Assembly: GCA_964607945.1 (NCBI GenBank)
Contig: CAZSNX010000002.1
Span: forward strand, 1 to 35,372
DNA: 35,372 nucleotides
Reading direction: 5' to 3'
From: an uncultured Candidatus Obscuribacterales bacterium
GTDB taxonomy: Bacteria; Cyanobacteriota; Vampirovibrionia; Obscuribacterales; Obscuribacteraceae
In this document: positions 21,444-35,372 of the stretch, piece after piece
Numbering within the stretch: the first letter of the stretch is position 1
Layout of the letters: every line of letters starts with the position of its first letter
Notes under the pieces: model-generated
Seen by the model: the letters and a program-made list of their open reading frames with translations, nothing else
What the model was told of the DNA's origin: nothing
Database searches by the model: none
Translations under genes and position numbers: made by a program

Positions 21444-22178
21444 ATGACTAAGAAGAAACAGGCAGAACAAAAGAATTGCGGCAATCAGATCTTGTTTGCC
21501 GGCTTGGGTTTGGTTCTGGCTACTGTACCTTTTGCCTGTCCTGGCTCGTCTGTGCAAGCTCAGGGAATGCAGTCTCTGCGCAATCCGCTTATTCCGGGCG
21601 TGCCAAGCGCTGGCCCGATGGAACAAGCCCAGGAAGGCATGCCGCCGCCGCCGGGCGATGGCGATACTCCGATGCCGGTAACTCCGGGGCATGAAGGCAA
21701 CCCGTTGCCGCCGCCGTCGGCAGTGACCGTTCCGGCTACCAGCCCGCTCGACAAGAGTGAAGTCAACTCGGCTGTCGCACCATATTTGACGCCACCGCCG
21801 TCAACTCCCGGCCAGAACCCCGGCATGCTTCCCGGAACATTAAGCGGCTACAGACCGCCGGCACTGATGACTGAGGTGCAACCTCAAGGTGGTCTTCAAG
21901 GCAATGCACCGATCCATAAGTGGGATGGGCAGACGACCAGGGATTATGGTCTAGTCCGGCCGCGCGGTTCGCAATCGACCGACTTTGGGCGGCCGCTGGA
22001 TCAAGTATCTGTGGTTCGAACCAACAAAACCGAGGACGGGCCGCGTCCGATCGGGCAAAACGGGGCACCGATGCAGCCAAATCTGGGCGGTGCTCAACAA
22101 ACTTCAGACCTTTACGGCGCAAGGACTCTGTACAAAGGTGCGTACCTGCGTCCTGTCATGACTATTGCTCCTTATTAA
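21444..22178 (+). CDS. secreted Pro-rich protein, paralog A
   Basis: Signal peptide ends in VQAQG. The mature part starts with LRNPLIPG. It shares PPPSTPG..PG and STDFG.P blocks with the next gene and ends in ...TIAPY. Confidence 0.6.
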   Translation: MTKKKQAEQKNCGNQILFAGLGLVLATVPFACPGSSVQAQGMQSLRNPLIPGVPSAGPMEQAQEGMPPPPGDGDTPMPVTPGHEGNPLPPPSAVTVPATSPLDKSEVNSAVAPYLTPPPSTPGQNPGMLPGTLSGYRPPALMTEVQPQGGLQGNAPIHKWDGQTTRDYGLVRPRGSQSTDFGRPLDQVSVVRTNKTEDGPRPIGQNGAPMQPNLGGAQQTSDLYGARTLYKGAYLRPVMTIAPY

Positions 22179-22206
22179 CCCAGGCTTCCAGGAGGCCAAG
22201 TAAATC

Positions 22207-23175
22207 ATGTTGACCAAGATAATCACCAGGGTAGCAATCGGCTTAGCGGTCACCGCCGGAGTGTGGCACAGCGCAGGCTGTCAATCCGCCCACGCTCAAG
22301 GGTCGAGCACGCTGCGCGACCCGCTCATTCCTGGGGCTATCAGCTCCGCGCCGTTTTTCCCGGCCGCTGAAGGTCGACCGCCGGCTCCCGGCAGCGGACC
22401 CACGCCGGCACCGGTCATCCCCGGTCAGGGCGGGCCGCCGACGCTATTGCCCTGGATACCGGCTGTGCCGTCCAATCAGATCGATATCGGCTCGAGCGGA
22501 ATACCTCTACCATTTGGACCTCCGGTTGAAATGCCGCCGGGCGTGCTCGGTCCTTTGATGACCCCCTTTGTGCCTGCACCGCCCTCCACTCCTGGTGTAG
22601 ACCCGGGCATTTTGACCGTGCCGCCCTATGCTCAGACATTCAACCCATCGGCGCTGGCGCCGGTTGCTCCGCTCGGCGGCATTCCCGGTACCGGTGGTTA
22701 TAACACCACCATCCCGACAGTCCGTCGCGGCGGGCAGGAGACTCATCAGTGGGAGTTGCGCGGGCGCAACAGTTCGCTGATTGGCGGATTGGGCGACGGC
22801 AGCCAAGATCAAGTATCGCGTTTGGGTCCTTATACCGGTTGGGGCTTGCCGTTCGGCGTGCCGACCGGCAACGGGCTGCGCAACAACTCGATCGATCTAG
22901 GCGGCGGCATGCGCTTCGGTGGCGGTGAAGGTACGCCTATTTCAACCGGCTCATCCTTGCAGGATTTCGGCGACAGCGCCATGCGTAACGCTCCGATCCA
23001 GGGGCTGGGCGCTCAGCAGTCGTACGAATACGGGCAAGGCTGGCGCCGGATTCCGATGTACAGCAGCAAGTCGACTGACTTCGGCTTCCCCTACAAGCAG
23101 TTCAATGGCGCCAACATCGGCAACCAAAAAACAGGACAGCGCTTGAATCCTACCGCTGTGATCACCAACTTCTAG
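22207..23175 (+). CDS. secreted Pro/Gly-rich protein, paralog B
   Basis: AGGAGG RBS. The signal peptide ends in AHAQG and is followed by LRDPLIPG. It shares blocks with 21444-22178 and ends in ...AVITNF. Confidence 0.65.
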   Translation: MLTKIITRVAIGLAVTAGVWHSAGCQSAHAQGSSTLRDPLIPGAISSAPFFPAAEGRPPAPGSGPTPAPVIPGQGGPPTLLPWIPAVPSNQIDIGSSGIPLPFGPPVEMPPGVLGPLMTPFVPAPPSTPGVDPGILTVPPYAQTFNPSALAPVAPLGGIPGTGGYNTTIPTVRRGGQETHQWELRGRNSSLIGGLGDGSQDQVSRLGPYTGWGLPFGVPTGNGLRNNSIDLGGGMRFGGGEGTPISTGSSLQDFGDSAMRNAPIQGLGAQQSYEYGQGWRRIPMYSSKSTDFGFPYKQFNGANIGNQKTGQRLNPTAVITNF

Positions 23176-23182
23176 CCTGCCA

Positions 23183-23216
23183 GGGGGGATTCTCCCATTG
23201 CAGTGGGAATTCCCCC
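23183..23216 (+). promoter_or_regulatory. two-copy GGGAWTYCCCC motif (site A) upstream of gene 23294
   Basis: The sequence is GGGGGGATTCTCCC-N8-GGGAATTCCCCC. The ends of the two copies are 20 nt apart. A TAAGAT -10-like hexamer (23242-23247) lies 25 nt after the second copy. Confidence 0.45.
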
Positions 23217-23293
23217 GCTTTCCTCCAGCAGGCGCTTCTCGTAAGATTCCAGCATCGCTCCATCCCCAGGCAAACAAAATCGAAGCCACCAAA

Positions 23294-24079
23294 ATGAAAA
23301 CCCTCCTTCCCAATTCGAATAAGACAGTACGGACGCTAGCGTTCGTAGCTGCCACGGTTCTGTTGGCAAGCAGCAGTGTTGGTCAAGCAGCCAGCGCTCA
23401 GGGATATGCCAGCGGCCAGTCTAACTACTTTGCCTCGGCCGGCTCCGAGCAAGATTCGTTGTTGCCACCAGAAGTGGTGCCGCTGGATCCGGTCGCTGCC
23501 AATAAGCTAATGGAAAGTCAGGCGCAATCGAGAGCAGCCAATATCGATATTCCCGACATGCAATCGGCCCCTGGTATGGTCACGATGGACCAGCCTGGAG
23601 CCGGCATGCAAACCGCTCAAGATGCTCGCAAAGCGGCGTTCAACCAGTTGATGGGGCAGAACCAAGTCGCTCCGATCAACCGCTCGTATCAGCCGCAGAT
23701 GCCTGGCGGTCAGATGGGACCTGGCGGTTTCCCCGGCGCTCCTGGCGCCGGAAATCCGAATTTCCCCTATCAACCGCAAATGGCCAACAACTATCCCGGA
23801 CCGCAAGGCGGTGCGGGCGGGCAAACCGCTCAGTCCGGTTGGATGCAGCCCGGACAAGGTGGACAACAGACTCTTTCCGGTGGTGTGAAATACACCCAAC
23901 AAAGACGTGATATTCGCCGGGCCGGCTTGTCGAATGCCGTAAGTGCGGTCGCCGGTCTAGGCACGGGATTGTTCCTCGGCTCGCTGGTTTCGCGCTCTTA
24001 TTATTCGAACCCGGTCGGGCTCGGGATGATGGGGTTGGGAATGACGGGATTTGGCATACGAAATGGATTTAGGTTCTAA
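23294..24079 (+). CDS. secreted Gln/Pro/Gly-rich protein with C-terminal glycine-zipper hydrophobic tail
   Basis: I chose M33 of the track ORF: MKTLLPNSNKTVRTLAFVAATVLLASSSVGQAASAQG is a good signal peptide. The C-terminus is GLGTGLFLGSLV...GLGMMGLGMTGFGIRNGFRF. Confidence 0.6.
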   Translation: MKTLLPNSNKTVRTLAFVAATVLLASSSVGQAASAQGYASGQSNYFASAGSEQDSLLPPEVVPLDPVAANKLMESQAQSRAANIDIPDMQSAPGMVTMDQPGAGMQTAQDARKAAFNQLMGQNQVAPINRSYQPQMPGGQMGPGGFPGAPGAGNPNFPYQPQMANNYPGPQGGAGGQTAQSGWMQPGQGGQQTLSGGVKYTQQRRDIRRAGLSNAVSAVAGLGTGLFLGSLVSRSYYSNPVGLGMMGLGMTGFGIRNGFRF

Positions 24080-24083
24080 GCAT

Positions 24084-24806
24084 ATGAAAGTGATCATTCT
24101 CGCTCTAATAACCACAGCAGCCACCAGCGTTCTTGCAGTGCAAAGCGCGAACGCCGAGGGTCGCTCCGCCCGATTCGATTTCGCTCCCAACATGTGGAAA
24201 GTCGAAGGGGTGCGCGTGCCTCCCATCCAAGAAGCTCCGCATGCAGTCAAAAGCGGTGCCGTGCCTCATGGTGCAAGCTTCCTCGGTCTGTCTCCGCATA
24301 TGCTCACTAAGCCGGCGCCGGTTCATCAACCGGCAATGCCGCCGCAAGCGCAAACTCAAGTAGCGGCAAAACCGAGCTTCACTCGGACCGTACCGCAGAT
24401 AGCAGTGCCTAACACGCAATACAAGAACGAATTCGGCAAGGCCGGCAGTTTGAATCCACCGGTGGTGGCAAGTGCACCGCCTGCTGTTGCTCCGCCGCTG
24501 CCGCAGTCTGCCGGTCAGGCTCAATCGCTGCCGCCGATGTCGCAGCAAGCCGCACCGGCAAAGGCAAGCTATCCAGCCAAACCGCTAGTGGCTCACAATC
24601 GTACGTCCTCAGCCAGAAATGTGCACGGAGTGCTTAAGCATCGTAACGCACCGAGTGGGCTGGTTGCCGATGCCGGCAAGAGGATCGACAGTTATGGCAA
24701 CAACGGTTATGTTCCAGGTTCATTTCTCCCGGCCGCTTACACCGGCGATGGTTCAACTACTCAGACCGACGTACACGGTCGAGTCATGAGCCACAGATCG
24801 AAATAA
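24084..24806 (+). CDS. secreted Pro/Ala-rich protein
   Basis: ATG 24084 lies 4 nt after the upstream stop. Signal peptide is MKVIILALITTAATSVLAVQSANAEG. The body is Pro/Ala/Gln-rich and low in complexity. Confidence 0.55.
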   Translation: MKVIILALITTAATSVLAVQSANAEGRSARFDFAPNMWKVEGVRVPPIQEAPHAVKSGAVPHGASFLGLSPHMLTKPAPVHQPAMPPQAQTQVAAKPSFTRTVPQIAVPNTQYKNEFGKAGSLNPPVVASAPPAVAPPLPQSAGQAQSLPPMSQQAAPAKASYPAKPLVAHNRTSSARNVHGVLKHRNAPSGLVADAGKRIDSYGNNGYVPGSFLPAAYTGDGSTTQTDVHGRVMSHRSK

Positions 24807-24880
24807 GGCATCACTTCGTTTCTCAACTAATTGGCGCAAGGTCAATAGATCTCTAAACTGACAACCCTAGGAGGTTAAAA

Positions 24881-25312
24881 ATGGTAACCAGCATTAAATC
24901 AACCAGCAAGAAGATTATGTCTTCTCGCGCCTTCAAGGTTGCCTGTCGCGTGGGATTTCTCCTGGCTCCACAACTGGTCCTCATGGCCATCGGTGTTTAC
25001 GATCAAGTAGCACATGCCCAAGGGCTGGTGGGAGCTCCAGTAGACCCCCGCTACGGGCAATCAAATGAAGTAGGTCAGATGGCCGACTTCGGATATGACA
25101 CCGCACGTGACATATCCCGGGTCGTGACCGCGCTTTCGACAATTCCGTCCTCGATGGCGGGAATGAAGATCGCTTTCGGTCAACGTGACGGTGGTGAATC
25201 CGCCATGAACGTAGCCAAAGGACTCGGTATCGGATTCGGTGGACCGACAGCGGTTCACTTGATCGGAACGTTCGCCATCAACAACTTCGGCGGACTCGGC
25301 GGCGGTCTATAA
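24881..25312 (+). CDS. small two-helix membrane protein, candidate VirB2/TrbC-like pilin
   Basis: Strong SD (AGGAGG, 7-nt spacer). A long leader ends in AHAQG. The mature part is about 96 aa with two Gly-rich hydrophobic segments (ISRVVTALSTIPSSMAGMKIAFG and GLGIGFGGPTAVHLIGTFAI) separated by a charged loop (QRDGGES). It sits immediately upstream of the VirB6-like genes. Confidence 0.5.
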   Translation: MVTSIKSTSKKIMSSRAFKVACRVGFLLAPQLVLMAIGVYDQVAHAQGLVGAPVDPRYGQSNEVGQMADFGYDTARDISRVVTALSTIPSSMAGMKIAFGQRDGGESAMNVAKGLGIGFGGPTAVHLIGTFAINNFGGLGGGL

Positions 25313-25327
25313 CCGTCACCGCTTTTC

Positions 25328-25352
25328 GGGCCGGTATCTTCGATACCGGCCC
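25328..25352 (+). terminator. stable hairpin 16 nt after the pilin-candidate stop; possible attenuating terminator
   Basis: GGGCCGGTAT-cttcg-ATACCGGCCC forms a perfect 10-bp stem with a 5-nt loop. No U-tract follows, so it is not a canonical intrinsic terminator. Confidence 0.35.
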
Positions 25353-25362
25353 GAATCCTTCA

Positions 25363-25493: not shown

Positions 25494-28400
25494 TTGGATT
25501 CAACAGTGTTAGCCGACACTACTTGCATGATTCAATTTCTCTATCGGCTCCTGTGCGCCAGGATTTTTGATTCGACGCGCTTGCCTGCACTTTCTACCTG
25601 TAGAGTCGAAGTAAGAAAGAGTTCTTCAAGCAGAGCCGGTCGTGCACTGCTTGTAATGTTCTTGTTGTTGGCACCATACATTCTTTTGTCCGGCGCCGCT
25701 CTCGCTCAAACCGAGCCGCCCCAGCAGAAGGCCGGCGATACGCTGCCGATCGGGGCAGGCGATCTCGGAGCCGGCGATGATCTTTCGCCCAAGGCCAGCC
25801 GTACCGATCCGACCTCGAAGTATTACACTGATTCGCGAGCCGACACCAACCTGGTGACTCAGGAAGCCGAACAGAACAAAAATGGCGTCACCGAGATAGT
25901 TACGGATATGCTGAAAGGGCAGCTCGGCGAATACAACGACGTTTATTGGGGTCAGCACCAGTTCTGGTCGGATGATATTGTAAGCAACCTCTTTTCGAAT
26001 ATCGGCCAGCTGATTGGAAAATGGCTGACTGAGTTCATCGATGGCTGGGTAGCTGATACCGTTCAGTTCCTGACAGCCTTCCTTAGAATCTTCGTGCTCA
26101 ATCCCAACATCGCCGTCAACGGTTTGAACGGCAACGGGCAAGATGACATCTCACCTTATATCCGTCAAGCTGCCGATATAATGTATGGCATTGCGGTCGA
26201 CCTGCTGCTTTTGCTCTTTATCCTTTGCATTTGGAAGTATTGGGCTGAAGCCTCTTGGCGAGGCGGCGGCAACCTGATGGGTGCGGTCGGCAGATTGATC
26301 TTCACAGCCGGGCTGATGCTGGCTTGGCCGACCATCTATGCATTCGAGATTCAAATCACCAATGAGATGATCAAGGCCATCTATTTCAATTCGGCCGATC
26401 AGGTCGTGATGCTGGATGCCGCTATGGCTGCCGCAGTCAAGGGAGGCTTGATGGCGACGGCCGGAGGGCTGGCTCATGCCTTCGCACCGGTAATCTTTTC
26501 AGTGGCAGGTGGTGCTCTCGGCGGCGGTGCCGGCGGTCTGGTTTTAGGCACTGTTGGTGATATCGTGTCGTTCGCCGGGTTGCTTATCTACACCACCTTA
26601 GGTGTGGTGCTGATTACCGAGTTGGTCTATTTCCTGGTGCTAAAGGCGATTCAGACAGCGCTTCTGGTCGCTCAATACATGTTTGCGCCGATTTTTCTGG
26701 TGTTCTTCGCCACTCCCGATACCGAGTCGGTGACTTCCGGATTCGTCAAAGCATTCGTTGAAGTCAGTCTCTGGAATTTCGTCTGGATTGGACTGCTCAA
26801 GATCATGGTGATCGTCTTGTATTCCGATTTCAATCCCTGGGGCAAGATTATTATGGCTGTGGGCATTCTGCAGATCATGATTCAAGTGCCGGGCTTCCTT
26901 TCCCGAGCTCAAATCAGCCCGATGTCCGATTTCATTTCGGCCGGCTTGATCTCCGGCAGCGTGCTCAACGGCTTCAAAGCTCTGGGAATGGCGGCTACGA
27001 AACGCACATCTCAGCTGTTCGACTACATGTTCAATCAACAATACGCCGCGCGCGGATTGACGCAATCTACCGGTGCTGTGATGGCGACTTTGCCGACTCA
27101 GGCTGCTGACCCCAAACTGCTCAATCAAATCAGAGCGGCGGCTGTCGGCAAGTCTCTCGATGGCAGACCTGATACCGGTCCGGGCCGTCCGCCGGCGGCT
27201 CGCGGTGATGGCGCCCATTCACTGGCTGCGCCTGGTTTGACCGGGCTCAATGGACAGCAGCCGGAGACCGAACAGCAGAAACAGGCCCGCCTCGAGCAAG
27301 AGCGACAACAAAAGGCGCAACAGTATGCGGCCGTTTTGGCAGCTGCCAGAACCGGTACCGGTTTGCCGGCTGGTACGCAGCCCGTTGCTGGCGCCGCCGG
27401 AGTACCACTTGATGCCGCTGGCGGTGCCGGTGCTAATCTCAATGCTACCCCCGGAGTTAGAAATAATCTGGCGGCCGGTGCACTAGTCGGCGCCAGCGCA
27501 GGAATGGCAAGAGCGCTTTCGGATGCCGGGCTTCATCGCGGCGTGACCGATCCGCTCACGACCAATGTCGCACACGGGCTGCAAGGTGCCGGTCAAGCTT
27601 TCGAGAAAGGTCTGGACGAAAAGTTTGCGCACGGTGGTGCCGAAGGCGATGTAATCAATCCGGCACAACGATTCAATCATGCCGGTTATAAGTTCGTGCA
27701 GGCGAAGATAGCTGCTGTCGATGCCCGTACGTATAACGGCAACAGCATCGGCTTTTCCGATGACGGTCAGAACAAACTGGTTGGTGATGGACGCGGCAAT
27801 TTGAGGCATATGCGTGCTCGCAAAGGCGCCTCTGCCGAAGAAGTCGCGCATTTGGTGCTGGCCGGCGGCTTTACTGAGCTGTTCAAGGACGATTCGGAAG
27901 CTTTCGATGCTGCCCGGCAATCGGCTATTGATTCAGGCGAAGATGGTCCGAAAGGAATGTTCGAACGCATGGGCGCAGGCTTCATGGCGCATCAAGGCGG
28001 AACCTTCAAGCAAACGGCCAGAGCCAAGGAGCGCTTCGCCAAGTCGCTATTCAAGCATGCTGCTCTGGGCGCCGAGTCTTACGTAAGCGGTAAGCCCGGC
28101 AATGCCTACACTGAATATCTAAGAACACGTTTCGGAGATTGGAGCGCCAAAGACGACACTTGGGGTACTCATATCTTGACCGATGCGGCGTCACCGGAAT
28201 CGCCATGGAATCCAAAGTATGTCCCAGCAACGGAAACCGTGTTCCAGTCAGGCTTGCCGATCAACAACCAGAACCGCGCGGCTGCCGCCAACCCGTATGT
28301 GATGAAGCTGCCGGCCTGGCAGCGTAGAGCTGGTATCGTTGCCGTCTCCGGTTATTTGAAACAATTGGCTGATGCTCAATATCCGGATGCCGACGACTAT

Positions 28401-29438
28401 GTGCGCGACGCGGCGATTGGTCGGATGTCGCAACAAGTGGGTAATTCGGAGGTCGAAGCGGCCTATGCAATTCAGGTCGAATCGAACGGAGCCGATGTCA
28501 GTGTTCCGATCGTGCAAACTGTCGCTCAATTGAGCGAAGATCCACGCTGCAAGGATGCGGCTTCGGCATATCTCAATCTGCGTTCGCTGGTCGCTCACTC
28601 GTCGGGTGGCGGCACCCGCCGCGGCAACATAACGATTCAAGCGATGCTGCGGGATAGCGGCGGTGGTGGCGGGTCAGCGGCGCCGGTGCATCCAGGAAAT
28701 GTCCATATCCCAACCATCAATTCGCCGCCTCCGGTAGTTCAGCAGGATGCCGATATCGAGATTGTCGGCGGCGGTGGCGGCAGCGCCGATGGCAATCAGC
28801 CGGTACAAAGGCTGAGTATGGATGTTCCTCTCAACAATTCCGGTCAACCGCAAGTTCACACTGATACTCGTGTTCACGGTGGTGGCGCCGGCGGTGGTGG
28901 CGGCGTGCTCAACCAGAATGTCGAAGTGGAAGTACGTGGTGTGGGCGGTCAAGGACAGGCTCCCACCATCAGCCAGGGCGATATCGCCGGGGCCGTTGCC
29001 GGAGCCGGAGTCAATACGAGACCGCTTTACATGGCTGCTCAGATGATGCTGGATATGTACAACGCCGGCTTCAACGATTCGCAGATTCAAGACCCGAAAG
29101 TAGCCAACATCGCTACTCACTATTACAGTCAGGGTCAACCGCATATGCTCAGCACAGTAGCTGTTGCCGCTCGCGTCCTTGGCAACAACGATGTAAGCGC
29201 AGGCACCGTGCAGACGATTCAAACCATGATTGATGCCGGTCACAATCCCAACCAGATTCAACGTCCGGATGTATGGACGGCGGAAGCTTGTATCGCCAGA
29301 CAGCTCTACCCGACGCCGGCACAGGTGCGCCGATGGAGGCTGGATGAGCGCTTCAGCCCGCACAGAGGCTCGATGCTGCCGCCGAATCTGGGACGCAACG
29401 ATGGCCGACCCGATCCGCCCCAACATCGTGGCTCCTAA
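25494..29438 (+). CDS. giant VirB6/TrbL-like polytopic membrane protein with ~800-aa C-terminal extension, paralog 1
   Basis: 1314 aa. The signal-like segment ends in ALAQ-TEPP. About 8-9 TM segments lie at aa ~230-500. LLLLFILCIWKYWAEASWRGGGNLMGAVGRLIFTAGLML resembles the first TM, loop and second TM of TrbL/VirB6. A low-complexity linker and a conserved soluble C-terminal region follow. The start is uncertain (TTG 25494, ATG 25527, TTG 25581). Confidence 0.7.
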   Translation: MDSTVLADTTCMIQFLYRLLCARIFDSTRLPALSTCRVEVRKSSSSRAGRALLVMFLLLAPYILLSGAALAQTEPPQQKAGDTLPIGAGDLGAGDDLSPKASRTDPTSKYYTDSRADTNLVTQEAEQNKNGVTEIVTDMLKGQLGEYNDVYWGQHQFWSDDIVSNLFSNIGQLIGKWLTEFIDGWVADTVQFLTAFLRIFVLNPNIAVNGLNGNGQDDISPYIRQAADIMYGIAVDLLLLLFILCIWKYWAEASWRGGGNLMGAVGRLIFTAGLMLAWPTIYAFEIQITNEMIKAIYFNSADQVVMLDAAMAAAVKGGLMATAGGLAHAFAPVIFSVAGGALGGGAGGLVLGTVGDIVSFAGLLIYTTLGVVLITELVYFLVLKAIQTALLVAQYMFAPIFLVFFATPDTESVTSGFVKAFVEVSLWNFVWIGLLKIMVIVLYSDFNPWGKIIMAVGILQIMIQVPGFLSRAQISPMSDFISAGLISGSVLNGFKALGMAATKRTSQLFDYMFNQQYAARGLTQSTGAVMATLPTQAADPKLLNQIRAAAVGKSLDGRPDTGPGRPPAARGDGAHSLAAPGLTGLNGQQPETEQQKQARLEQERQQKAQQYAAVLAAARTGTGLPAGTQPVAGAAGVPLDAAGGAGANLNATPGVRNNLAAGALVGASAGMARALSDAGLHRGVTDPLTTNVAHGLQGAGQAFEKGLDEKFAHGGAEGDVINPAQRFNHAGYKFVQAKIAAVDARTYNGNSIGFSDDGQNKLVGDGRGNLRHMRARKGASAEEVAHLVLAGGFTELFKDDSEAFDAARQSAIDSGEDGPKGMFERMGAGFMAHQGGTFKQTARAKERFAKSLFKHAALGAESYVSGKPGNAYTEYLRTRFGDWSAKDDTWGTHILTDAASPESPWNPKYVPATETVFQSGLPINNQNRAAAANPYVMKLPAWQRRAGIVAVSGYLKQLADAQYPDADDYVRDAAIGRMSQQVGNSEVEAAYAIQVESNGADVSVPIVQTVAQLSEDPRCKDAASAYLNLRSLVAHSSGGGTRRGNITIQAMLRDSGGGGGSAAPVHPGNVHIPTINSPPPVVQQDADIEIVGGGGGSADGNQPVQRLSMDVPLNNSGQPQVHTDTRVHGGGAGGGGGVLNQNVEVEVRGVGGQGQAPTISQGDIAGAVAGAGVNTRPLYMAAQMMLDMYNAGFNDSQIQDPKVANIATHYYSQGQPHMLSTVAVAARVLGNNDVSAGTVQTIQTMIDAGHNPNQIQRPDVWTAEACIARQLYPTPAQVRRWRLDERFSPHRGSMLPPNLGRNDGRPDPPQHRGS

Positions 29439-29688: not shown

Positions 29689-32600
29689 ATGAATAAAAGA
29701 TGGAATTTTTACGCTGGCATCGTCGGCCGAACAGATAGCCGCTCCGGCTTGGCGTTGTGCGCGCTATTGCTCGTTTTATTACCTTACTTTTGCCTGATTC
29801 CAGCATCCAATTCGCAGACCGAGCCGCCGGAGTCGGGCAATGCTTCGTCAAACAGTGCAAATGCAGTCTTAGATGATGGTTTGTCCGAGCAAGCGAAAAA
29901 GACTGATGCTACTGCCCGCTATTTTACCGATGCCGATCTCGAAACTTCGCTGGTACAGCAAGCCGCCGAGCAAAACAAGACCGGTGTGATTGAAGAAGTG
30001 GAGCGCCTTTTAAGAGGGGAGCTCGGCGTATACAACGATACTTACTTCGCGCTCCATCAATGGTTTTCCGACGATTGGGTAAGCAATCTCTTTGCCAATA
30101 TCGGGCAATTGATCGGTAAGTGGCTGACGGAATTCTTGTGTGGCTGGGTGGCGGATACGGTCAGATTGCTGACTGCGTTCTTGAAAATTTTCGTGCTCAA
30201 TCCCAATCTACCTGTCAACGGGATGAAGCAAGACGGACCATCGGATGATATCTCCAAGATGGTCTGCCAAGCTACTGATGTTATGTATGGAATTGCCGTC
30301 GACCTGCTCCTGCTGCTTTTCATTCTCTGCATCTGGCGATTTTGGGCCGATGCGGCGTGGAAGGGCGGCGGCAATCTGATGGGGTCTGTCGGGCGCTTAA
30401 TTTTCACCGCCGGGCTGATGTTGGCATGGCCGACTATCTTTGCCTTCGAGATTCAAATCACAAATGAGATGATAAAGGCCGTCTACTTCAATTCGGCAGA
30501 TCAACTCGCTCAATTGGATGTCGCACTGGCAGCGGCGGTCAAAGGTGGGCTGGTAGCGACGGCGGCCGGTATTGCACAGGTATTTGCGCCGGTTTTAGGC
30601 GCAGCGACCGGCGGTGCGCTGAGCGCCGAGCTCGGCGGTATGGTGCTGGGCACCGTCGGCGATATCGTGGCCTATGCCGGGCTGATAGTTTTCACTATCC
30701 TGGGCGTCGTCCTGATAGCCGAAATAATGTATTTCCTCATATTGAAAGGGATTCAAACCGGGCTGCTTACCGCCCAATATATGTTTGCGCCAATTTTCCT
30801 GGTCTGTTTCGCTACCCCTGATACCGAATCGTATGCCTCCGGTTATGTCAAAGCGTGGATTGAGACGAGCTTGTGGACTTTCATCTGGGTCGGACTGTTC
30901 AAAATAATGGTGATCGTCATCTACTCGGATTTCAATCCCTGGGGCAAGATTATTATGGCGATCGGCGTTTTGCAATTGATGATTCAAGTGCCGGGATTTC
31001 TTGCCAGAGCAATGATATCGCCGATGTCTGACTTCATTTCGGCCGGTCTAGTTTCGGCGATGGCGTTCAAGGGGTTGGCTACTTTAGCCGGTGTCGGTGG
31101 AAAGGCGATGAATCGCTTCACCAAACAAGTGGCGGAGTGGCCGGCGCAGTATCCGCTCGTTTCAAAGGCGGCCGATCTGAACCGGTTGCCTACAAATGCT
31201 GCAGACCCGAACTTATTGGCTCAGTACAGAACGGCTTCTGCCGCCAAACCGATGGGAGCTGCCGGCACCGCCGGCTCACTGGGTGGTCCGGGCGCGGCCG
31301 GCGCCATCGGTAGCTCCGGAGCTGGAATCAATACCGGCACTGCAATCAACACTCAAAATGGTGCCGCTCAACCGGTAGCCGGTCAAACTGGTGCCGGATT
31401 TGCAGCCGGTGGGCAAATGACTGGCGTGCCGCAAAGAAGAGGCTCGCTTGGTGGCGTTGGGGCAAATCCGGCGTTGACTCCTGCCGGTCAGCCGGAAACT
31501 GAAGAGCAGCGTCAGAAGCGTCAGGAGATGGAAAGACTGCAAAAGGCCTCTAAATATGCTGCTGCTCTCCAGCAACAGAAGCAGGGTATAGTCACCGGCG
31601 GTTCAGCGCCGGGAACCGCAAACTTTGCCGCGGCCGGCGCGCTTACCGGAGTTCGGGCCGGACTGGGACGGACGCTCTCGCCGGCTGGTGTTCAGCGCGG
31701 AATGGTTGATCCCACTACAACCGGTGTTCCCGACGACGTGCAAGGACAAGATTTCATTTCAGCGGGGCTTGACAGTCTGCCCGGCTCGAATCAGCCTGAA
31801 AAGAAAGCCACATTCAATGCCGCAGAACAGCTCAATCAAGCTTATTACAAGTTCGTCCAAGGAAAGATAGCGGCGGTAAACGCTCGCACGTACAACGGCA
31901 ACAGTATCGGCTATTCCACCGATGGAAAAAACAAGCTTGTCGGTGACGGCAAGGGCAATCTCCGGCATATGCGAGCGCGCAAAGGCGCGACACCGGAGGA
32001 GGTGGCGCATCTGGTGCTGGCCGGTGGCTTCACTGAACTCATGAAAGATGATGCCGAAGCGCATGATGCCGCCAGAAATGCGGCGATTGACTCCGGTGTG
32101 CTGGAGCCTGAGCGATTGGGAAGACCGGGCGGGCTGTCCGAGCGGATAGCAGCCGGTTGGATCGGTTACAACGGCGGCAGCTTCCGGGAAACTGCCTTGG
32201 CCAAACAACGGTTCAATCGGGCGATGTTCGAACAAGCTGCCACCGGCTCAGAAGCTTATGTCAGCGGCCAGGAAGGCAATGCTTACACACAATATTTGCG
32301 CACTCGTTTCGGTGAATGGACGAGCAAGGACGACACCTGGGGTGTCCACATGATGACCGATGCCTCGATTGCGGCATCGCCCTGGAATCCTACCTACATC
32401 GCTGCCACCGACTCGATCCTGCAAGGCGGCATGAAGATAGATGAGCGGAATCGTGCCGCAGCCGGCAATACGCATGTTTTGAAACTGCCTGCCTGGCAGC
32501 GAAAGACGGCCATCCCGGCTGTGGCTGCTTACGCCACTCAGTTGGCCGAAGCGCAGTTTCCCGGGGCTGATTCTACAATCATCGACTCGGCGGTGCTGGG

Positions 32601-33450
32601 CCTGGTGCAGCACTTGAGCCCTCATGAAGTCTCGGCAGCCAATGCTATCTATCTGGAAGCTGGTGTGGAAGGGCTGTCGGTGCCGATGGTGCAGACAGTG
32701 GCCAATCTCTCCCGGCTGCCTGGCTCCGGCAGCGCTGAAGATGTGTACAAGAGCTTGCGCAGCACGATGAATGTGGTGACCAGTGCGCGACCGAGGAGCG
32801 CCGGCGGCAGTTCAACTGTTCGTGTCCTTTATGATGAAGGCGGCGGCTCAGCTCCACCCCCACCTCCGGCAATCGATGGCAACTTTATCGACGGCGGGCA
32901 TAGTGCAGCCGGTGTAACTGATATCGAAGTTCGCCCGCTTGGCGGGTCGCCCGGAGATTACAGTTCACCGGTGCAGGAAATTCATGTCGCCTCAGGCGGA
33001 GGCTCGTCTGGTGTAAGTGTTGGTAGATTTGATATGCCGCCGGCACAAAATGCCAATTTGATCGAGCGAGCCAGTCAGGTGGTGGTGCGCATGTATGACG
33101 CCGGCATGAACGACAAGCAGATACGCGACAGTCGGGTTGCCGATCTCGCTCATCATTTCTACGATAACCATCCGCACATGATGCATGCGGTTTCAGTGGC
33201 GGTGGATTGCCTGCCGCCGGGCGAATTGGATGTCGAGTCGGTCCATACAATAAATGATATGTTGAGCTCCGGTTACAACCCCGGTCAGATTCACCGCGCC
33301 GAAGTGGAGGTCGCTCGACGCTTCCGCGGTCAAAATATTGACCCCTCTCCGCGAGCTGTTGCCAGCTGGAGACAACGAGCTTACAATGATCCGACCATGA
33401 ACTCCGCTCCGCCGTCCCCACGCGGGCGAAAAGATCGAGTCAACCAATAA
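29689..33450 (+). CDS. giant VirB6/TrbL-like polytopic membrane protein with C-terminal extension, paralog 2
   Basis: 1253 aa and collinear with paralog 1. By-eye alignment gives 64/72 identical residues at 30289-30504 against 26187-26402, and 71/84 identical at 31846-32097 against 27687-27938. Confidence 0.75.
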   Translation: MNKRWNFYAGIVGRTDSRSGLALCALLLVLLPYFCLIPASNSQTEPPESGNASSNSANAVLDDGLSEQAKKTDATARYFTDADLETSLVQQAAEQNKTGVIEEVERLLRGELGVYNDTYFALHQWFSDDWVSNLFANIGQLIGKWLTEFLCGWVADTVRLLTAFLKIFVLNPNLPVNGMKQDGPSDDISKMVCQATDVMYGIAVDLLLLLFILCIWRFWADAAWKGGGNLMGSVGRLIFTAGLMLAWPTIFAFEIQITNEMIKAVYFNSADQLAQLDVALAAAVKGGLVATAAGIAQVFAPVLGAATGGALSAELGGMVLGTVGDIVAYAGLIVFTILGVVLIAEIMYFLILKGIQTGLLTAQYMFAPIFLVCFATPDTESYASGYVKAWIETSLWTFIWVGLFKIMVIVIYSDFNPWGKIIMAIGVLQLMIQVPGFLARAMISPMSDFISAGLVSAMAFKGLATLAGVGGKAMNRFTKQVAEWPAQYPLVSKAADLNRLPTNAADPNLLAQYRTASAAKPMGAAGTAGSLGGPGAAGAIGSSGAGINTGTAINTQNGAAQPVAGQTGAGFAAGGQMTGVPQRRGSLGGVGANPALTPAGQPETEEQRQKRQEMERLQKASKYAAALQQQKQGIVTGGSAPGTANFAAAGALTGVRAGLGRTLSPAGVQRGMVDPTTTGVPDDVQGQDFISAGLDSLPGSNQPEKKATFNAAEQLNQAYYKFVQGKIAAVNARTYNGNSIGYSTDGKNKLVGDGKGNLRHMRARKGATPEEVAHLVLAGGFTELMKDDAEAHDAARNAAIDSGVLEPERLGRPGGLSERIAAGWIGYNGGSFRETALAKQRFNRAMFEQAATGSEAYVSGQEGNAYTQYLRTRFGEWTSKDDTWGVHMMTDASIAASPWNPTYIAATDSILQGGMKIDERNRAAAGNTHVLKLPAWQRKTAIPAVAAYATQLAEAQFPGADSTIIDSAVLGLVQHLSPHEVSAANAIYLEAGVEGLSVPMVQTVANLSRLPGSGSAEDVYKSLRSTMNVVTSARPRSAGGSSTVRVLYDEGGGSAPPPPPAIDGNFIDGGHSAAGVTDIEVRPLGGSPGDYSSPVQEIHVASGGGSSGVSVGRFDMPPAQNANLIERASQVVVRMYDAGMNDKQIRDSRVADLAHHFYDNHPHMMHAVSVAVDCLPPGELDVESVHTINDMLSSGYNPGQIHRAEVEVARRFRGQNIDPSPRAVASWRQRAYNDPTMNSAPPSPRGRKDRVNQ

Positions 33451-33598
33451 TCGAGTCTTCAAATTTATAAGTGAGCCAATCAGAGTTAGTTGGCGCAGAT
33501 GAGGCTATCCCTCACGCAGTGTTGCGATGCGTTGATTAATTCTTGCTTCCCGACTACGTATTTCCCCCACTAATTTGCCTGAAACGCCTATTAGCGAT

Positions 33599-33630
33599 GG
33601 GCATTCCCCCATGACCGTGGGATTTCCCCC
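33599..33630 (+). promoter_or_regulatory. two-copy GGGAWTYCCCC motif (site C) upstream of the zinc-ribbon gene
   Basis: The sequence is GGGCATTCCCCC-N8-GGGATTTCCCCC. The ends of the two copies are 20 nt apart. A TACACT -10-like hexamer (33656-33661) lies 25 nt after the second copy, the same geometry as site A. An extra partial copy, TATTTCCCCC, is at 33559-33568. Confidence 0.45.
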
Positions 33631-33708
33631 GATTCACCGCGGAAGATGCCGGCCATACACTATGGACACGTGAATTGGAAGCCACTCACGGACTGGCAGG
33701 AACCCATT

Positions 33709-34407
33709 ATGCAAGTCATCAAAGAGTTTAGCGTTCAACCTACATCAGTGGTCTGTCCGGCCTGCAATTCAATCTTTGCCACCCCGGCGCTGGTAACGAT
33801 GCCGAATGTCACGCCCGAAACTTTGATCGAGGCTGACCTGCACAGGGTGTTGCCTGATGCGGCGATTCGAGCTGCGCTGGTGGCGATGTGTCCGGCTTGC
33901 AGCTATACCTGGTGGATTACCGCATTCAGACCACATCTATTTAAGCCCGGTCTGGTTCCTCCCACACCGATTATCGACAGTCCTAAGAAGTTTGCTCATG
34001 CCGTTTTGACCGGCAGACAAAACGGTGCTCACAGCTTGGACCTGGCACTGTTGGCGTTGAACGGATGCTGGTGTGCGCGCGAGGCCGGACAGCCTCACGA
34101 GCGCTGGCTGGAGCTGGCCGGAGCCGAACTCGAGAAAGCTTTGAGAGATGTCGAATGGAATGGCAATCGTAGCTACTATCACTATGTCATGGGTGAAGTC
34201 TGCCGGCAGTCGGGAGAGTTCAAAGGTGCGGTAAATCAGTTAAATCTGGTCGGACCAGAGTCAATGTTGCCGAAAGAATTAGTGGAACGCCAGAAGGTGC
34301 AGGCGATATCCGGCGATGCCAAGCCGGCGGCGCTGCCACCGCATCTGGTGGAGCTCCTTTTCTGTCCGAGAGTGAAGCAGCAAGAAAGTTTGGTTGCTGA
34401 GGAGTAG
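33709..34407 (+). CDS. DUF2225-like zinc-ribbon protein with helical (TPR-like) C-terminal part
   Basis: CPAC...(about 40 aa)...CPACSYTWW matches the split zinc-ribbon layout I recall for DUF2225. I prefer the start MQVIKEF (ATG 33709, AGGAA upstream) over ATG 33646, because 33646 lies upstream of the putative -10 element. Confidence 0.55.
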   Translation: MQVIKEFSVQPTSVVCPACNSIFATPALVTMPNVTPETLIEADLHRVLPDAAIRAALVAMCPACSYTWWITAFRPHLFKPGLVPPTPIIDSPKKFAHAVLTGRQNGAHSLDLALLALNGCWCAREAGQPHERWLELAGAELEKALRDVEWNGNRSYYHYVMGEVCRQSGEFKGAVNQLNLVGPESMLPKELVERQKVQAISGDAKPAALPPHLVELLFCPRVKQQESLVAEE

Positions 34408-34415
34408 CCGGAGAG

Positions 34416-34754
34416 ATGGAAGATATCACACCGCTTAATCTTGAAGATCAACCAAAGCTGTTCGGATTGCGTTACGACCAGCTGATAGCAATCCTGGCCA
34501 GCTTGATCGTATCGACGCAACTTTATTCTTGGCTCAACCCCGTTCCGTTCGCCGGACACGATCTCCGGTTGGACATTGCTATCCTGATCGGAATGATTGG
34601 TCCTATTTATGCACTATTCACCCTAAACAACTCGGCAGCACATTGGGAAAATGTACTGAATTTCTTTCTTTCATCGAAAGTCTATATTCCGGGACCGGAT
34701 CCAAATCCGAATCGTTTTCTTCTTGACGAAGAGCTAGTTGACTTCAGCGAGTAA
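34416..34754 (+). CDS. VirB3/PrgI/TcpE-like small two-TM type IV secretion component
   Basis: 112 aa. PKLFGLRYDQLIAILASLIV resembles the (F)(G/N)LT.RQL motif plus TM1 of PrgI/TcpE-type VirB3 analogs. A second TM is DIAILIGMIGPIYALF. It lies immediately upstream of the VirB4-like ORF. Confidence 0.55.
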   Translation: MEDITPLNLEDQPKLFGLRYDQLIAILASLIVSTQLYSWLNPVPFAGHDLRLDIAILIGMIGPIYALFTLNNSAAHWENVLNFFLSSKVYIPGPDPNPNRFLLDEELVDFSE

Positions 34755-34759
34755 ACACA

Positions 34760-35372
34760 ATGGTAGCTTCAATTTCAAGACAACGTGCTAAAGAGAGCAA
34801 CCTTCTAGGCTTCATGCGCCGGACGAAGATTGACTCCGCCGACAGTGTCGGCATATCCAAGCTGCCGGCAATGGCGGTGCCAAGACCGCACGGCTCTGCC
34901 GCCGGATTAATCCCGATCTGGGACCTCTTCCAGGATGACAATTCAGGTCTGGGGGTGATCGTCCTTAAAGACGGAAGCTATCGTTGCTGTTTTGAAGTCG
35001 ACGGCGTTCACGTGAGCGGTTTCGATGAAGTACGGTTGGTCTCCTTGATGAACCACTTTACCGGCTTTCTCAATTCGATCGACACATCCGTTCAGCTCAC
35101 GATCGTCTGTCACAACATAAGCAAGAGAGAATATTTCGCACGCCATCCGGTAGAGGTAATTGATGATGAGTTTCTCAAATACGTCGCACGCTCTGTTGAA
35201 AACGATAAAGCATTTCTTCTCTCCAAGAACTTCATTCCAGAGCTCAAGTTCTACGTCACTTTCTGCTATCGCCCCCCGCGCGAAAAGCCAGCCAAGCAAG
35301 GATGGCTCGAAAGCACGCTCAGCCACATTCAAGATGTCTTCACAAATCAAGCCGCACGTCAGACGGTCGGGC
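34760..35372 (+). CDS. VirB4/TraE-like type IV secretion ATPase, N-terminal fragment; runs off the window end
   Basis: My own translation from ATG 34760 (5 nt after the upstream stop) is open to the window end and is not in the ORF track. GLGVIVLKDGSYRCCFEVDGVHVSGFDEVRLVSLMNHFTGFLNSIDTSVQLTIV follows the N-terminal pattern of VirB4-family proteins (dG.y...levdg.n.....e......f..fLnsl....iq). Confidence 0.65.
   Translation, partial: MVASISRQRAKESNLLGFMRRTKIDSADSVGISKLPAMAVPRPHGSAAGLIPIWDLFQDDNSGLGVIVLKDGSYRCCFEVDGVHVSGFDEVRLVSLMNHFTGFLNSIDTSVQLTIVCHNISKREYFARHPVEVIDDEFLKYVARSVENDKAFLLSKNFIPELKFYVTFCYRPPREKPAKQGWLESTLSHIQDVFTNQAARQTVG

Follow-up and report, generated by a model that had tools for sequence, protein, structure and literature searches.

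What kind of machine is encoded by the run of co-directional genes at the right end of this window (the whole 35,372-nucleotide stretch analysed here, from an uncultured Candidatus Obscuribacterales bacterium), and does it belong to the chromosome or to a mobile element? An earlier note on this DNA had proposed a type IV secretion (T4SS) or conjugation-like cluster of atypical composition. The genes seen here make up the left two-thirds of a cluster on the chromosome, ~22-24 kb long, and our preferred reading, held with slightly better than even confidence, is that the whole constitutes a complete conjugation-type T4SS of a distinct lineage, a domesticated and vertically inherited organelle for DNA export or conjugation rather than a roaming element.

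Layout of the cluster and its conjugation-type core

As had been claimed, a tightly spaced series of genes follows a housekeeping block (GlpD, RadA, UvrC, YfhO, RarA): the open reading frame (ORF) listing gives ten plus-strand ORFs from 21444 to the window edge, with spacings of 4-250 bp. The features are as follows.

20470..21075, minus strand: coiled-coil protein, 201 aa, divergent, at the left border; membership of the system uncertain
21444..22178, plus strand: P1, secreted Pro/Gly-rich protein, 244 aa, paralogue of P2; signal-like N-terminus, VQA/QG site
22207..23175, plus strand: P2, secreted Pro/Gly-rich protein, 322 aa, candidate envelope component with order-wide motifs
23294..24079, plus strand: P3, secreted Gly/Ala/Gln/Pro-rich protein with a glycine-zipper-like hydrophobic C-terminal tail; signal peptide, ASA/QG site
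24084..24806, plus strand: P4, secreted Ala/Pro-rich protein; signal peptide, ANA/EG site
24881..25312, plus strand: B2, pilin-like small secreted protein, 143 aa (46-aa leader, 97-aa mature part)
25494..29438, plus strand: G1, giant VirB6/TrbL-like protein, 1314 aa, start codon uncertain; domain map from 75 homologues
29689..33450, plus strand: G2, tandem paralogue of G1, 1253 aa, same domain order
33646..34407, plus strand: Zn, cytoplasmic DUF2225-family protein, zinc ribbon plus TPR-like C-terminal half; likely ATG 33709
34416..34754, plus strand: B3, small VirB3/PrgI-like membrane protein of 112 aa; gene 5 bp ahead of VirB4
34760..35372, plus strand: VirB4 ATPase; the window ends after 204 of its 930 codons

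The coiled-coil gene, whose product gave no match in the family search, lies upstream of P1 in the closest relatives only (L007, L009, L034). The composition of the cluster is atypical in its set of components and not in its nucleotides, as GC3 of its genes (0.48-0.69, mostly 0.55-0.62) is host-like rather than foreign when compared with the housekeeping block (0.55-0.62), and the raised GC at 22-24 kb is due to Pro, Gly and Ala codons. Within the window, Pfam and NCBIfam searches returned no VirB1, B5, B7-B11, coupling protein (T4CP), relaxase or integrase, and neither a tRNA nor a repeat boundary was found, in agreement with the earlier note; for the coupling protein and relaxase, however, this absence is true of the window and not of the system, as a T4CP and a candidate relaxase are encoded immediately beyond the right edge.

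The inner-membrane and cytoplasmic core comprises a VirB6/TrbL-domain giant, duplicated here, and a VirB4 ATPase. The truncated last ORF had been taken for a VirB4 N-terminus, and even as a fragment it matches TIGR00929 (E=8.6e-4). The full 930-aa protein, available from the exact-match contig L001, matches P-loop_TraG (1.1e-18) and AAA_10 (3.7e-9) and, among curated families, CD1110 (2.1e-46), TraC (1e-45) and VirB4_CagE (3.8e-37), with Walker A (GQPGEGKS) and Walker B (CIDE) motifs invariant in 12 orthologues. It nevertheless reaches the cut-off of no curated VirB4 subfamily. Comparison with the MPF_C cluster of Nostoc by BLASTP and phmmer gave no match for VirB4 or for any other protein pair, which rules out the cyanobacterial MPF_C type for this VirB4. 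The suggestion of a poorly described MPF type is borne out by these results, and we read the system as a hitherto undescribed variety of T4SS.

The giant proteins are, on profile matches and predicted structure, TrbL/VirB6 homologues, as had been suspected. Conservation across the 75 homologues delimits in G1 a signal or transmembrane segment (aa 52-70; ~7 transmembrane segments in all), a TrbL domain (~aa 120-540; 25851-27113) followed by a low-complexity linker, an all-alpha domain CD1 (aa 720-1020; 27651-28553) followed by a Gly-rich region, and a domain CD2 (aa 1176-1285; 29019-29348). In orthologues that share 56% identity with the window copy, the transmembrane domains exceed the gathering cut-off of Pfam TrbL_4 (28.0-28.3 bits against 27, E ~1.5e-6), and the top four Foldseek PDB matches of the AF2 model of the TrbL domain (pLDDT 55.6) are R388 TrwI/VirB6 chains (E=0.022, TM 0.46). 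The CD1 model (pLDDT 67.9) gave no fold match, and the CD1/Gly-rich/CD2 extension showed no detectable sequence or fold similarity in Pfam or PDB. G1 and G2 share 71% identity in their TrbL domains and 59% in CD1; most related genomes have a single giant gene (650-2500 aa), and two occur only in the window lineage, L004 and L006.

Between the VirB6 and VirB3-like genes, in 81 loci, lies the gene for the Zn protein. The zinc ribbon noted earlier is present (invariant C37, C40, C82 and C85, with the motif EADLHRVLPD, in the alignment), and orthologues give the protein a fuller identity: 22 of 24 match PF09986 DUF2225 (best 4.8e-8) and 14 of 24 TPR_2, the window copy by itself reaching E=0.3 against DUF2225. 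It may act as a cytoplasmic adaptor or assembly factor. B3 directly precedes VirB4 in each of 82 loci. A VirB3/PrgI reading of it finds weak support in its N-terminal PKLFGLRYDQL, in register with KI.FGL..RQL of annotated PrgI (hhalign P=0.0085), and in the order pilin-like, VirB6, VirB3-like, VirB4, which is that of Firmicutes clusters; it had no significant direct match, the PrgI match of one orthologue standing at E=0.14. The protein would act as VirB3.

Secreted proteins and the envelope

The four signal-peptide Pro-rich proteins described earlier each carry an N-terminal hydrophobic segment followed by a cleavage-type site (AxA/QG or AxA/EG), with 9-16% Pro. The motifs TLRxPLIPG and PSTPGxDPG recur in P1, P2 and their orthologues, all of which also have an aromatic residue at the C-terminus (MTIAPY in P1); P1, without a Pfam or NCBIfam match, keeps its place ahead of the T4SS genes in related loci. 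P2 bears the order-wide motifs RRGGQETHQW, IDLGGG and STDFGFPY and a C-terminal ...VITNF, and its comparison with L007 (pN 0.18, pS 0.63) gives dN/dS ~0.15. The P3 ORF is open from 23198 (likely ATG 23294) and has a further hydrophobic segment (aa 247-265, numbered on the long ORF); its orthologues, 28-54% identical, occupy the equivalent position in loci that extend that far. P4, open from 24051 (likely ATG 24084, 4 bp past the P3 stop), has orthologues directly upstream of the pilin-like gene in 34 loci. Family searches with P2, P3 and P4 were likewise without a match. In one genome an insertion of an IS and HigBA splits the P1-B2 genes from the rest of the cluster.

The pilin-like B2 has a leader ending in AHA/QG, and its mature part forms two weakly hydrophobic helices on either side of a charged loop (QRDGGES). 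In the alignment it is 78-96% identical order-wide, with an almost invariant mature part and unusually low synonymous divergence, and its position is that of pilin-like genes in Firmicutes T4SS clusters. Its description as a VirB2-like two-helix protein holds for the architecture and not for profile or PDB similarity, of which the searches found none. This ultra-conserved secreted protein may be a pilin or conduit subunit.

The Pro-rich proteins, B2 and the giants' C-terminal domains resemble nothing known, and the VirB2, VirB3 and VirB8 assignments found no statistical support in profile and structure comparisons. Conserved synteny is the one basis for regarding P1-P4 as candidate parts of the machine; together with the C-terminal regions of G1 and G2, predicted to be periplasmic or extracellular, they may supply the part spanning periplasm and outer membrane, in the role that VirB7/9/10 have in classical systems.

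Coupling protein, relaxase candidate and inheritance

The rightward continuation was read from L001 and 80 related genomes, the window's own genome being traceable only into the T4CP. The extension proposed earlier recovers the rest of VirB4, a VirB8-like candidate (a 212-aa bitopic protein that would act as VirB8) and a VirD4-type coupling protein (PF02534 2e-21, TraG-D_C 1.5e-8; best curated family CD1115, 9.8e-13), with a relaxase candidate in related loci. In 29 of the 63 loci, the deepest branches included, this last protein is encoded next to the T4CP; it scores 46.3 bits against PF13814 (Replic_Relax; cut-off 25.3), the family of the MOB_C class of CONJScan (PMC5357655). The MOB_C family has a PD-(D/E)XK fold, and its members have also been interpreted as transcription regulators (PMC3424549). 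A search for an oriT identified none. The system most likely exports relaxase-bound DNA: the relaxase would nick the DNA, the coupling protein would pass the relaxase-DNA complex to a VirB4-energised channel, and the DNA would be exported to a neighbouring cell or the medium.

The same parts could instead deliver proteins or mediate cell contact (predation, epibiosis, killing, adhesion), a role suggested for Patescibacteria and for Vampirovibrio, with Replic_Relax a regulator or relic, a possibility that we regard as real but distinctly less probable. In about half of the loci the relaxase candidate was not found within 6 kb after the T4CP, its place being taken by a serpin gene in the Obscuribacter clade; the large, variable and repetitive C-terminal regions of the giants and the lineage-specific secreted proteins suggest surface interaction. 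Against this, the T4CP is retained everywhere (63 complete copies), the relaxase candidate keeps invariant H, E, D and K residues of catalytic type in shallow and deep branches, and the 122 flank ORFs contain no recurring effector-like or toxin gene; O. phosphatis is not known as a predator. In favour of this role, the chromosomal, lineage-wide and vertical character of the cluster recalls the Patescibacteria T4SS, read as co-opted (PMC12102498), and the class relative V. chlorellavorus is a predator with a T4SS (PMC4451040), although the Vampirovibrio system is of another type, MPF_T.

A DNA-uptake (ComB-like) or other import machine built from T4SS parts is very improbable. VirB4-based uptake is known in ComB (Helicobacter) and Ced (Crenarchaeota), and outgroup VirB4 proteins give weak CedB/CedD NCBIfam matches, but the clade's own VirB4 gives no Ced match, and ComB-type systems lack the coupling protein and relaxase that are both present here.

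The cluster is carried by 104 species-representative genomes. It is single-copy, syntenic and chromosomal in at least 80 species-level Obscuribacterales genomes (80 loci were fetched, each from a different assembly), in keeping with the suggestion of a system adopted by the chromosome. Within the clade VirB4 is 71-97% identical, all full-length copies grouping together when clustered at 50% identity, and the nearest relatives outside the clade reach 28-32%; among 1.84 billion representative proteins no VirB4 relative lies between 32% and 70% identity, and a plasmid collection holds none above 26%. The cluster is under strong purifying selection, with saturated synonymous sites and pN of 0.08-0.20.

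Could it still be an active integrative and conjugative element (ICE), or a family of them, spreading horizontally within the order and vertical in appearance only? The full conjugation set (MPF, T4CP, relaxase) is present, flanks vary between major clades and IS elements lie near some loci, yet we consider this unlikely given the single copy per genome, the gap in VirB4 relatives, the lack of a tRNA or repeat boundary in the window, and the evidence on inheritance. The right, housekeeping junction is common to shallow and deep lineages (VirB4 identity 67-99%), an Opp-like ABC ATPase gene follows the relaxase in 20 of 20 loci where this is visible, and pairwise identities of VirB4 and this neighbour correlate (Mantel r=0.82, p=2e-4). 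Because of this shared junction, the divergence that tracks the ABC ATPase, the host-like GC3 and the lack of a recurring integrase or recombinase among the flank ORFs, the cluster is apparently a fixed chromosomal feature, vertically inherited across the order Obscuribacterales, as gauged by one conserved junction and one neighbouring gene rather than a species tree.

Kinship with known systems

The chromosomal T4SS of Patescibacteria/CPR (Quinonero-Coronel et al. 2025) is likewise lineage-wide, with a phylogenetically distinct VirB4, an affinity to monoderm-type (FATA-like) machinery and VirB2-like small proteins accompanied by VirB3-, VirB6- and VirB8-like proteins and a T4CP, and it is no typical mobile element either. 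The Obscuribacterales host, however, is a diderm cyanobacterial relative; its cluster often places a MOB_C-type relaxase candidate beside the T4CP, whereas relaxases are rare in CPR clusters, and adds the DUF2225 protein, the four Pro-rich proteins and the giant VirB6 fusion.

Monoderm systems (CD1110/CD1112/CD1115 of Clostridia; PrgH-I-J of MPF_FA/FATA) provide the best VirB4 and T4CP families and share the order pilin-like, VirB6, PrgI-like, VirB4 and the lack of VirB7, B9, B10 and B11. Scores are nevertheless far under the cut-offs (158.6 against 325 for CD1110, 47.7 against 250 for CD1115). In contrast to monoderm systems, the Obscuribacterales cluster has no cell-wall hydrolase gene, its VirB6 is 3-8 times longer, it is chromosomal and vertically inherited, and all its non-cytoplasmic parts carry Sec signal peptides, as a diderm envelope predicts and as the earlier note had remarked. 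The MPF_C cluster of Nostoc PCC 7120 (pCC7120alpha alr72xx; Guglielmini et al. 2013/2014) resembles it in its poorly characterised accessory proteins and comes from a host in the Cyanobacteria, of which the Obscuribacterales host belongs to the sister lineage, but it encodes a protein of the TrbI/VirB10 family and a MobV relaxase, neither of which occurs here.

Large VirB6-family proteins include TraG of the F plasmid and RvhB6 of Rickettsia, in which, as in the giants, an N-terminal polytopic VirB6/TrbL domain precedes a long C-terminal extension; the extension found here differs in having no detectable counterpart in Pfam or the PDB. The T4SS of the Neisseria gonococcal genetic island (GGI) is chromosomal, has a coupling protein and relaxase and exports chromosomal DNA, moving no plasmid; the island is F-type, horizontally acquired and strain-variable. 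It may serve as a functional analogue, although the Obscuribacterales cluster belongs to a different VirB4 lineage and is order-wide, and DNA export, known for the GGI, is here predicted. In the preferred reading, an order of non-photosynthetic relatives of cyanobacteria (Melainabacteria/Vampirovibrionia) would thus carry a DNA-transfer-type machine.

Gene content and rightward extension of the locus

The left 21 kb of the window is ordinary chromosome, as judged from an ORF and family scan, and is followed by ten plus-strand ORFs that run from 21444 to the window edge with intergenic gaps of 4-250 bp. No tRNA gene lies in the window, and promoter and terminator consensus matches scanned across it do not rise above chance. 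A foreign nucleotide composition of the cluster can be rejected, as its GC3 matches that of the housekeeping block.

Features of the window and of L001, the exact-match contig that continues it to the right
Left 21 kb: GlpD-type oxidoreductase, epimerase, methyltransferase, 2-hydroxyacid dehydrogenase, GT87 glycosyltransferase, RadA, UvrC, YfhO-like protein, RarA/MgsA
20470-21075 (-): coiled-coil protein, 201 aa, no family match, between RarA and the cluster
From 21444 (+): P1-P4, four Pro-rich secreted proteins
24881-25312 (+): B2, pilin-like protein, 143 aa
25494-29438 (+): G1, giant VirB6/TrbL-like protein
29689-33450 (+): G2, giant VirB6/TrbL-like protein
Between G2 and B3 (+): Zn, DUF2225 zinc-ribbon protein
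34416-34754 (+): B3, VirB3/PrgI-like protein, 112 aa
Right edge (+): VirB4, codons 1-204
L001, right of B3: complete VirB4 (930 aa), a 212-aa single-TM protein, start of a VirD4-type coupling protein (T4CP)

The coiled-coil protein is conserved at the RarA/cluster border only in the closest relatives. Within the housekeeping block, the 2-hydroxyacid dehydrogenase and GT87 ORFs (8749-11077) overlap by 47 bp with the TTG at 9740 taken as the true start, and the RadA and UvrC ORFs (12555-15871) by 4 bp, which suggests that the pairs are translationally coupled or that a start codon has been set wrongly.

Scanned directly against Pfam and NCBIfam, the ten proteins of the window gave nothing but a weak VirB4 match, the fragment alone reaching 8.6e-4 against TIGR00929. 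The extension was read from Logan contigs that encode a 112-aa protein identical in sequence to that of the window, L001 among them. Full-length VirB4 matches P-loop_TraG (1.1e-18) and AAA_10 (3.7e-9), and its Walker A (GQPGEGKS) and Walker B (CIDE) motifs are invariant; the VirB4-family ATPase with intact Walker motifs that a type IV secretion system (T4SS) requires is thus present, and automated annotation calls some copies a “VirB4 component”.

The earlier note, which proposed the VirB4 start at the edge, had reported neither a coupling protein nor a relaxase. This holds for the window itself, but a coupling protein and a relaxase candidate lie beyond its edge in relatives, and the extension brought the rest of VirB4 together with a T4CP. 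In L001 the visible start of the T4CP comprises an N-terminus rich in Pro, Met and Gly, TM segments and the Walker A motif APSGSGKTT; in a relative (L004/L005) whose VirB4 is 90% identical, the same gene encodes a 973-aa VirD4-type protein (PF02534, 2e-21; TraG-D_C, 1.5e-8). With 63 complete copies in related loci, all outside the window, the VirD4/TraG-type coupling protein required of a conjugative system is found. Before its first TM segment the T4CP carries an N-terminal extension of ~170 aa (L001:7559-8100; L004:13618-14150), whose Pro/Met/Gly-rich composition is reminiscent of the secreted P proteins.

In L004 the T4CP is followed by a 277-aa Replic_Relax protein (PF13814, 46.3 bits against a cut-off of 25.3). 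PF13814 represents the MOB_C class of CONJScan (PMC5357655) and has been assigned a PD-(D/E)XK nuclease fold (PMC3424549). Of the 63 loci, 29 have this relaxase candidate after the T4CP, the deepest lineages among them, and it has invariant H, E, D and K residues; since L001 ends inside the T4CP, the relaxase position of the window's own genome lies beyond view. Around the relaxase gene no oriT-like inverted repeats are conserved between loci, and those that occur look like terminators. Two further observations concern this end of the locus. A serpin gene (PF00079, 1.7e-89) replaces the relaxase candidate after the T4CP in the Obscuribacter clade (L045:8730-9881 and 20 other loci), and in the close relative L005 an IS21-family element (IstB and a Mu-type transposase; 9734-12029) sits just downstream of the relaxase candidate.

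Candidate channel and envelope components

The identification of the giant proteins as VirB6/TrbL homologues, put forward in the earlier note, is accepted here on both profile and predicted-fold grounds. Neither G1 nor G2 matches Pfam or NCBIfam directly, and a PDB sequence-profile search with the VirB6-like family gave nothing meaningful. Conservation across 75 homologues was used to map G1. A signal/TM segment is followed by a polytopic domain of ~420 aa (aa 120-540), which a low-complexity linker joins to the conserved all-alpha domain CD1 (aa 720-1020); a Gly-rich stretch then leads to CD2, a C-terminal domain of ~110 aa (aa 1176-1285). In the deepest branches (L066 and L085), the orthologous polytopic domains, 56% identical to that of G1, exceed the PF19597 TrbL_4 cut-off of 27 with 28.0 and 28.3 bits (E~1.5e-6). 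An AF2 model of the G1 polytopic domain is of low confidence (pLDDT 55.6); in a Foldseek search of 350,542 PDB chains its best four matches were all R388 TrwI/VirB6 (E=0.022, probability 1.00, TM 0.46-0.47). Two of the three homologue searches returned few sequences (22 and 4), and both AF2 alignments are limited in depth because proteins so long and of such low complexity are poorly indexed.

G2 is a tandem paralogue of G1 (TrbL domain 71% and CD1 59% identical). Most genomes carry one giant gene, of 650-2500 aa, the range coming mostly from repetitive low-complexity regions; the tandem duplication is confined to the window lineage and its closest relatives (L004, L006). A 472-aa protein 28% identical to the TrbL domain of the giant is encoded on an 8.3-kb contig (L088, Logan SRR28211901) on which no gene has a Pfam match, and this contig may represent another unrecognised T4SS-like cluster.

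The small proteins around the giants are assigned with less certainty. B3 lies directly 5' of VirB4 in 82 loci, and its size and hydrophobic segments suit VirB3/PrgI. Its motif PKLFGLRYDQL is in register with the N-terminal motif of annotated PrgI (hhalign against four PrgI-type proteins, P=0.0085), and one orthologue gives a weak match to Pfam PrgI (E=0.14); a PDB profile search with the family found nothing. A VirB3/PrgI-like identity is suggestive, not proven, and B3 could fill the VirB3 role. The 212-aa protein, which follows VirB4 in 79 loci outside the window, has a single TM segment at the N-terminus, and in its C-terminal half the sequence pattern runs from helices to strands. Weak profile hints to TraE (PF05309, E=0.031 in two members) and to the TcaA NTF2-like domain (0.16), together with an empty PDB profile search, leave it as a candidate for the VirB8 role.

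B2 has a 46-aa leader, an AHA|QG site and a 97-aa mature part of helix-loop-helix layout, and is encoded upstream of VirB6; layout and position resemble those of T4SS pilin-like genes, so that a pilin role may be proposed. Its helices are weakly hydrophobic, it matches nothing in Pfam, NCBIfam or the PDB, and hhalign gave no significant match between the family and a mixed set of T4SS pilin-like proteins (P=0.13). The mature part hardly varies across the order, and overall identity (78-96%) exceeds that of VirB4. When the window is compared with L007, L009, L016, L078 and L065, the pS of the B2 gene is 0.28-0.49, and up to 0.68, against 0.63-0.98 for the neighbouring genes of the same genome pairs; strong codon bias due to high expression, RNA-level selection or gene conversion could each account for the low values.

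The Zn protein carries four invariant cysteines, in two CxxC pairs that flank an invariant EADLHRVLPD. The window copy alone reaches DUF2225 at E=0.3 (profile positions 5-59), but 22 of 24 orthologues match this family (PF09986, best 4.8e-8), which places the Zn family in Pfam DUF2225, and 14 of 24 match TPR_2. Having no TM segment, it is a cytoplasmic zinc-ribbon/TPR protein and may serve as a cytoplasmic adaptor.

All four P proteins have signal peptides; P1 and P2, which are paralogous, share several order-wide motifs and an aromatic residue at the C-terminus. Neither Pfam and NCBIfam scans of P1-P4 nor Pfam scans of individual orthologues assigned them to a family. VirB7, VirB9, VirB10 and VirB11 were likewise matched by no cluster protein or orthologue in Pfam and NCBIfam. 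It may be that P1-P4, together with the extensions of the giant VirB6 proteins, span the envelope in place of the missing VirB7/9/10. The Firmicutes comparators place an SLT, CHAP or M23 protein after VirB4; the present cluster lacks this hydrolase of monoderm systems, no cell-wall hydrolase domain having been detected in any of its proteins. CD1 as the missing hydrolase is unsupported: its AF2 model (pLDDT 67.9, six sequences in the alignment) matched no fold (E>2). Neither CD1 nor CD2 of individual orthologues matched Pfam.

Distribution and inheritance

By the names that its homologues carry, the window belongs to Candidatus Obscuribacterales (Melainabacteria), a lineage sister to Cyanobacteria that does not photosynthesise. 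When each species was represented by one genome, 104 genomes held a close VirB4 relative. The 80 fetched loci come from 80 different assemblies, among them complete chromosomes and Ca. Obscuribacter phosphatis, with VirB4 identities of 71-97%, and the order P1-P2-P3-P4, pilin-like, giant, DUF2225, VirB3-like, VirB4, VirB8-like, T4CP is kept wherever a locus reaches. Among 1.84 billion 50%-identity representatives the full-length VirB4 of the clade stands as one protein, with its next relatives at 28-32% identity; the best plasmid VirB4 matches, from Myxococcus, Deinococcus, Firmicutes, Actinobacteria and Archaea, are 22-26% identical.

An integrative conjugative element would offer another explanation for a conjugation-like cluster on a chromosome, and it is unlikely, with no tRNA gene in the window, no integrase family found in three or more of 122 flanking ORFs and a right junction conserved in 20 loci. 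A gene for an Opp-like ABC ATPase comes next after the relaxase gene in 20 of the 20 loci where this position is visible. The census of 122 flanking ORFs yielded methyltransferases, ABC transporters, FUR, GNAT, ParA-like proteins, serpin and 3HCDH, and no recurrent integrase among the families found in three or more of these ORFs. Across pairs of loci, VirB4 identity (67-99%) correlates with that of the neighbouring ABC ATPase (65-99%; Mantel r=0.82, p=2e-4). Even in comparison with the nearest relatives, synonymous sites have reached saturation, and non-synonymous divergence is low. Taken together, the distribution, the synteny, the conserved junction with its correlated ABC ATPase, the flank census, GC3 and the divergence favour long vertical inheritance under purifying selection as the probable history of the locus.

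Several of the public MAGs that carry the locus (L012, L015, L021, L029, L007, L069, L078, L042 and L032) go under the titles Planktothrix, Drouetiella, Bryobacterales, Proteobacteria, Chloroflexota, Flavobacterium or Actinobacteria. The flanking genes of L029 and L069 are ~80% identical to those of the Obscuribacterales lineage, so that these taxon labels look wrong; the shared flanks of the Bryobacterales- and Proteobacteria-labelled MAGs point to mislabelling and give no evidence of transfer. In one further locus (L095:5385-9801, DAIDIP010000014.1), a ~4.7-kb block with a DDE transposase, a HAD hydrolase, a HigB/HigA toxin-antitoxin pair and two unknown genes parts the P1-B2 genes from the VirB6-VirB4 genes, both halves being intact.

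Relation to known systems and likely function

T4SS diversity is divided into eight mating-pair formation (MPF) classes, a scheme based largely on the plasmids and ICEs of bacteria in culture. Full-length VirB4 falls far below the cut-off of every curated family: CD1110 (2.1e-46, 158.6 bits against 325), F-type TraC (TIGR02746; 1e-45, 156 against 567), VirB4_CagE (TIGR00929; 3.8e-37 over residues 65-857, 127.9 against 643), Mbov_0397 (4.9e-33, 113.9 against 590) and TcpF (20.9 against 1100), with 16-25 bits for the TrbE and VirB4 equivalogs. Membership in MPF_FA/FATA thus fails on CD1110, Mbov_0397 and TcpF, and MPF_F on the TraC family. MPF_T fails on TIGR00929 and on VirB7-B11, which were not found. 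MPF_C is rejected as well, since neither VirB4 nor any other cluster protein matches the alr72xx cluster of Nostoc pCC7120alpha in BLASTP (E<0.5) or phmmer (E<1). MPF_T (VirB/D4) is the type reported in Vampirovibrio chlorellavorus (PMC4451040).

The nearest plasmid VirB4 proteins, those of Deinococcus and Myxococcus (about 1e-28), and the metagenomic outgroups L093 and L094 belong to clusters with different gene orders, in which VirB4 is the sole homologue apart from a weak T4CP match on the Deinococcus plasmid (E=2e-7). L093 (ENA ERZ25039480 contig_42101), with one of the nearest outgroup VirB4 proteins at 28% identity, holds an apparently chromosomal cluster of small pilin-like genes, VirB4, a 1237-aa protein and T4CP, adjoining ribonucleotide reductase and a GT87 gene.

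By its inner core and gene order the cluster is closest to the monoderm CD1110/PrgH-I-J type, and it probably works like a conjugative T4SS. In the literature searched, the system is not described. A new MPF class is a possibility and not a result, the placement being drawn from profile scores, pairwise matches and gene order.

The cluster encodes three T4SS parts, namely the energising ATPase, the VirB6 channel component and the coupling protein, to which many genomes add a MOB_C-type relaxase candidate, for which nicking is predicted. The most likely function would be to export DNA bound by the relaxase, from a fixed place on the chromosome, as conjugation-like transfer or DNA secretion. The main rival is a co-opted role in protein delivery or cell contact, of the kind proposed for the T4SS of Patescibacteria (PMC12102498); the likeness to that chromosomal, lineage-wide T4SS is one of lifestyle. 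It is conceivable, if rather doubtful as a whole, that the cluster constitutes a ninth, diderm-adapted T4SS class with a novel envelope part, a DUF2225 adaptor, the standing of an order-core organelle and a role in chromosomal DNA export. In this tentative joint reading, the envelope would be spanned by parts that have no known relatives, namely P1-P4, the near-invariant pilin-like subunit and the extracytoplasmic domains of giant VirB6; the organelle would have been inherited vertically since the origin of Obscuribacterales; and relaxase-driven export or exchange of chromosomal DNA would make it a built-in apparatus of sex or DNA donation and not a selfish element.

Obscuribacterales are a second whole uncultured lineage, after Patescibacteria, with a divergent T4SS fixed on the chromosome. 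The combination of a monoderm-like inner core with a diderm envelope, and with no recognisable VirB7/9/10, offers a test case for outer-membrane crossing. The locus also gives a functional context to orphan families, namely DUF2225, the Pro-rich proteins and the C-terminal domains of giant VirB6. Obscuribacter can be enriched from wastewater reactors, and the T4CP and MOB_C-type relaxase candidate that the locus retains open domesticated conjugation or DNA secretion to direct test in this organism.
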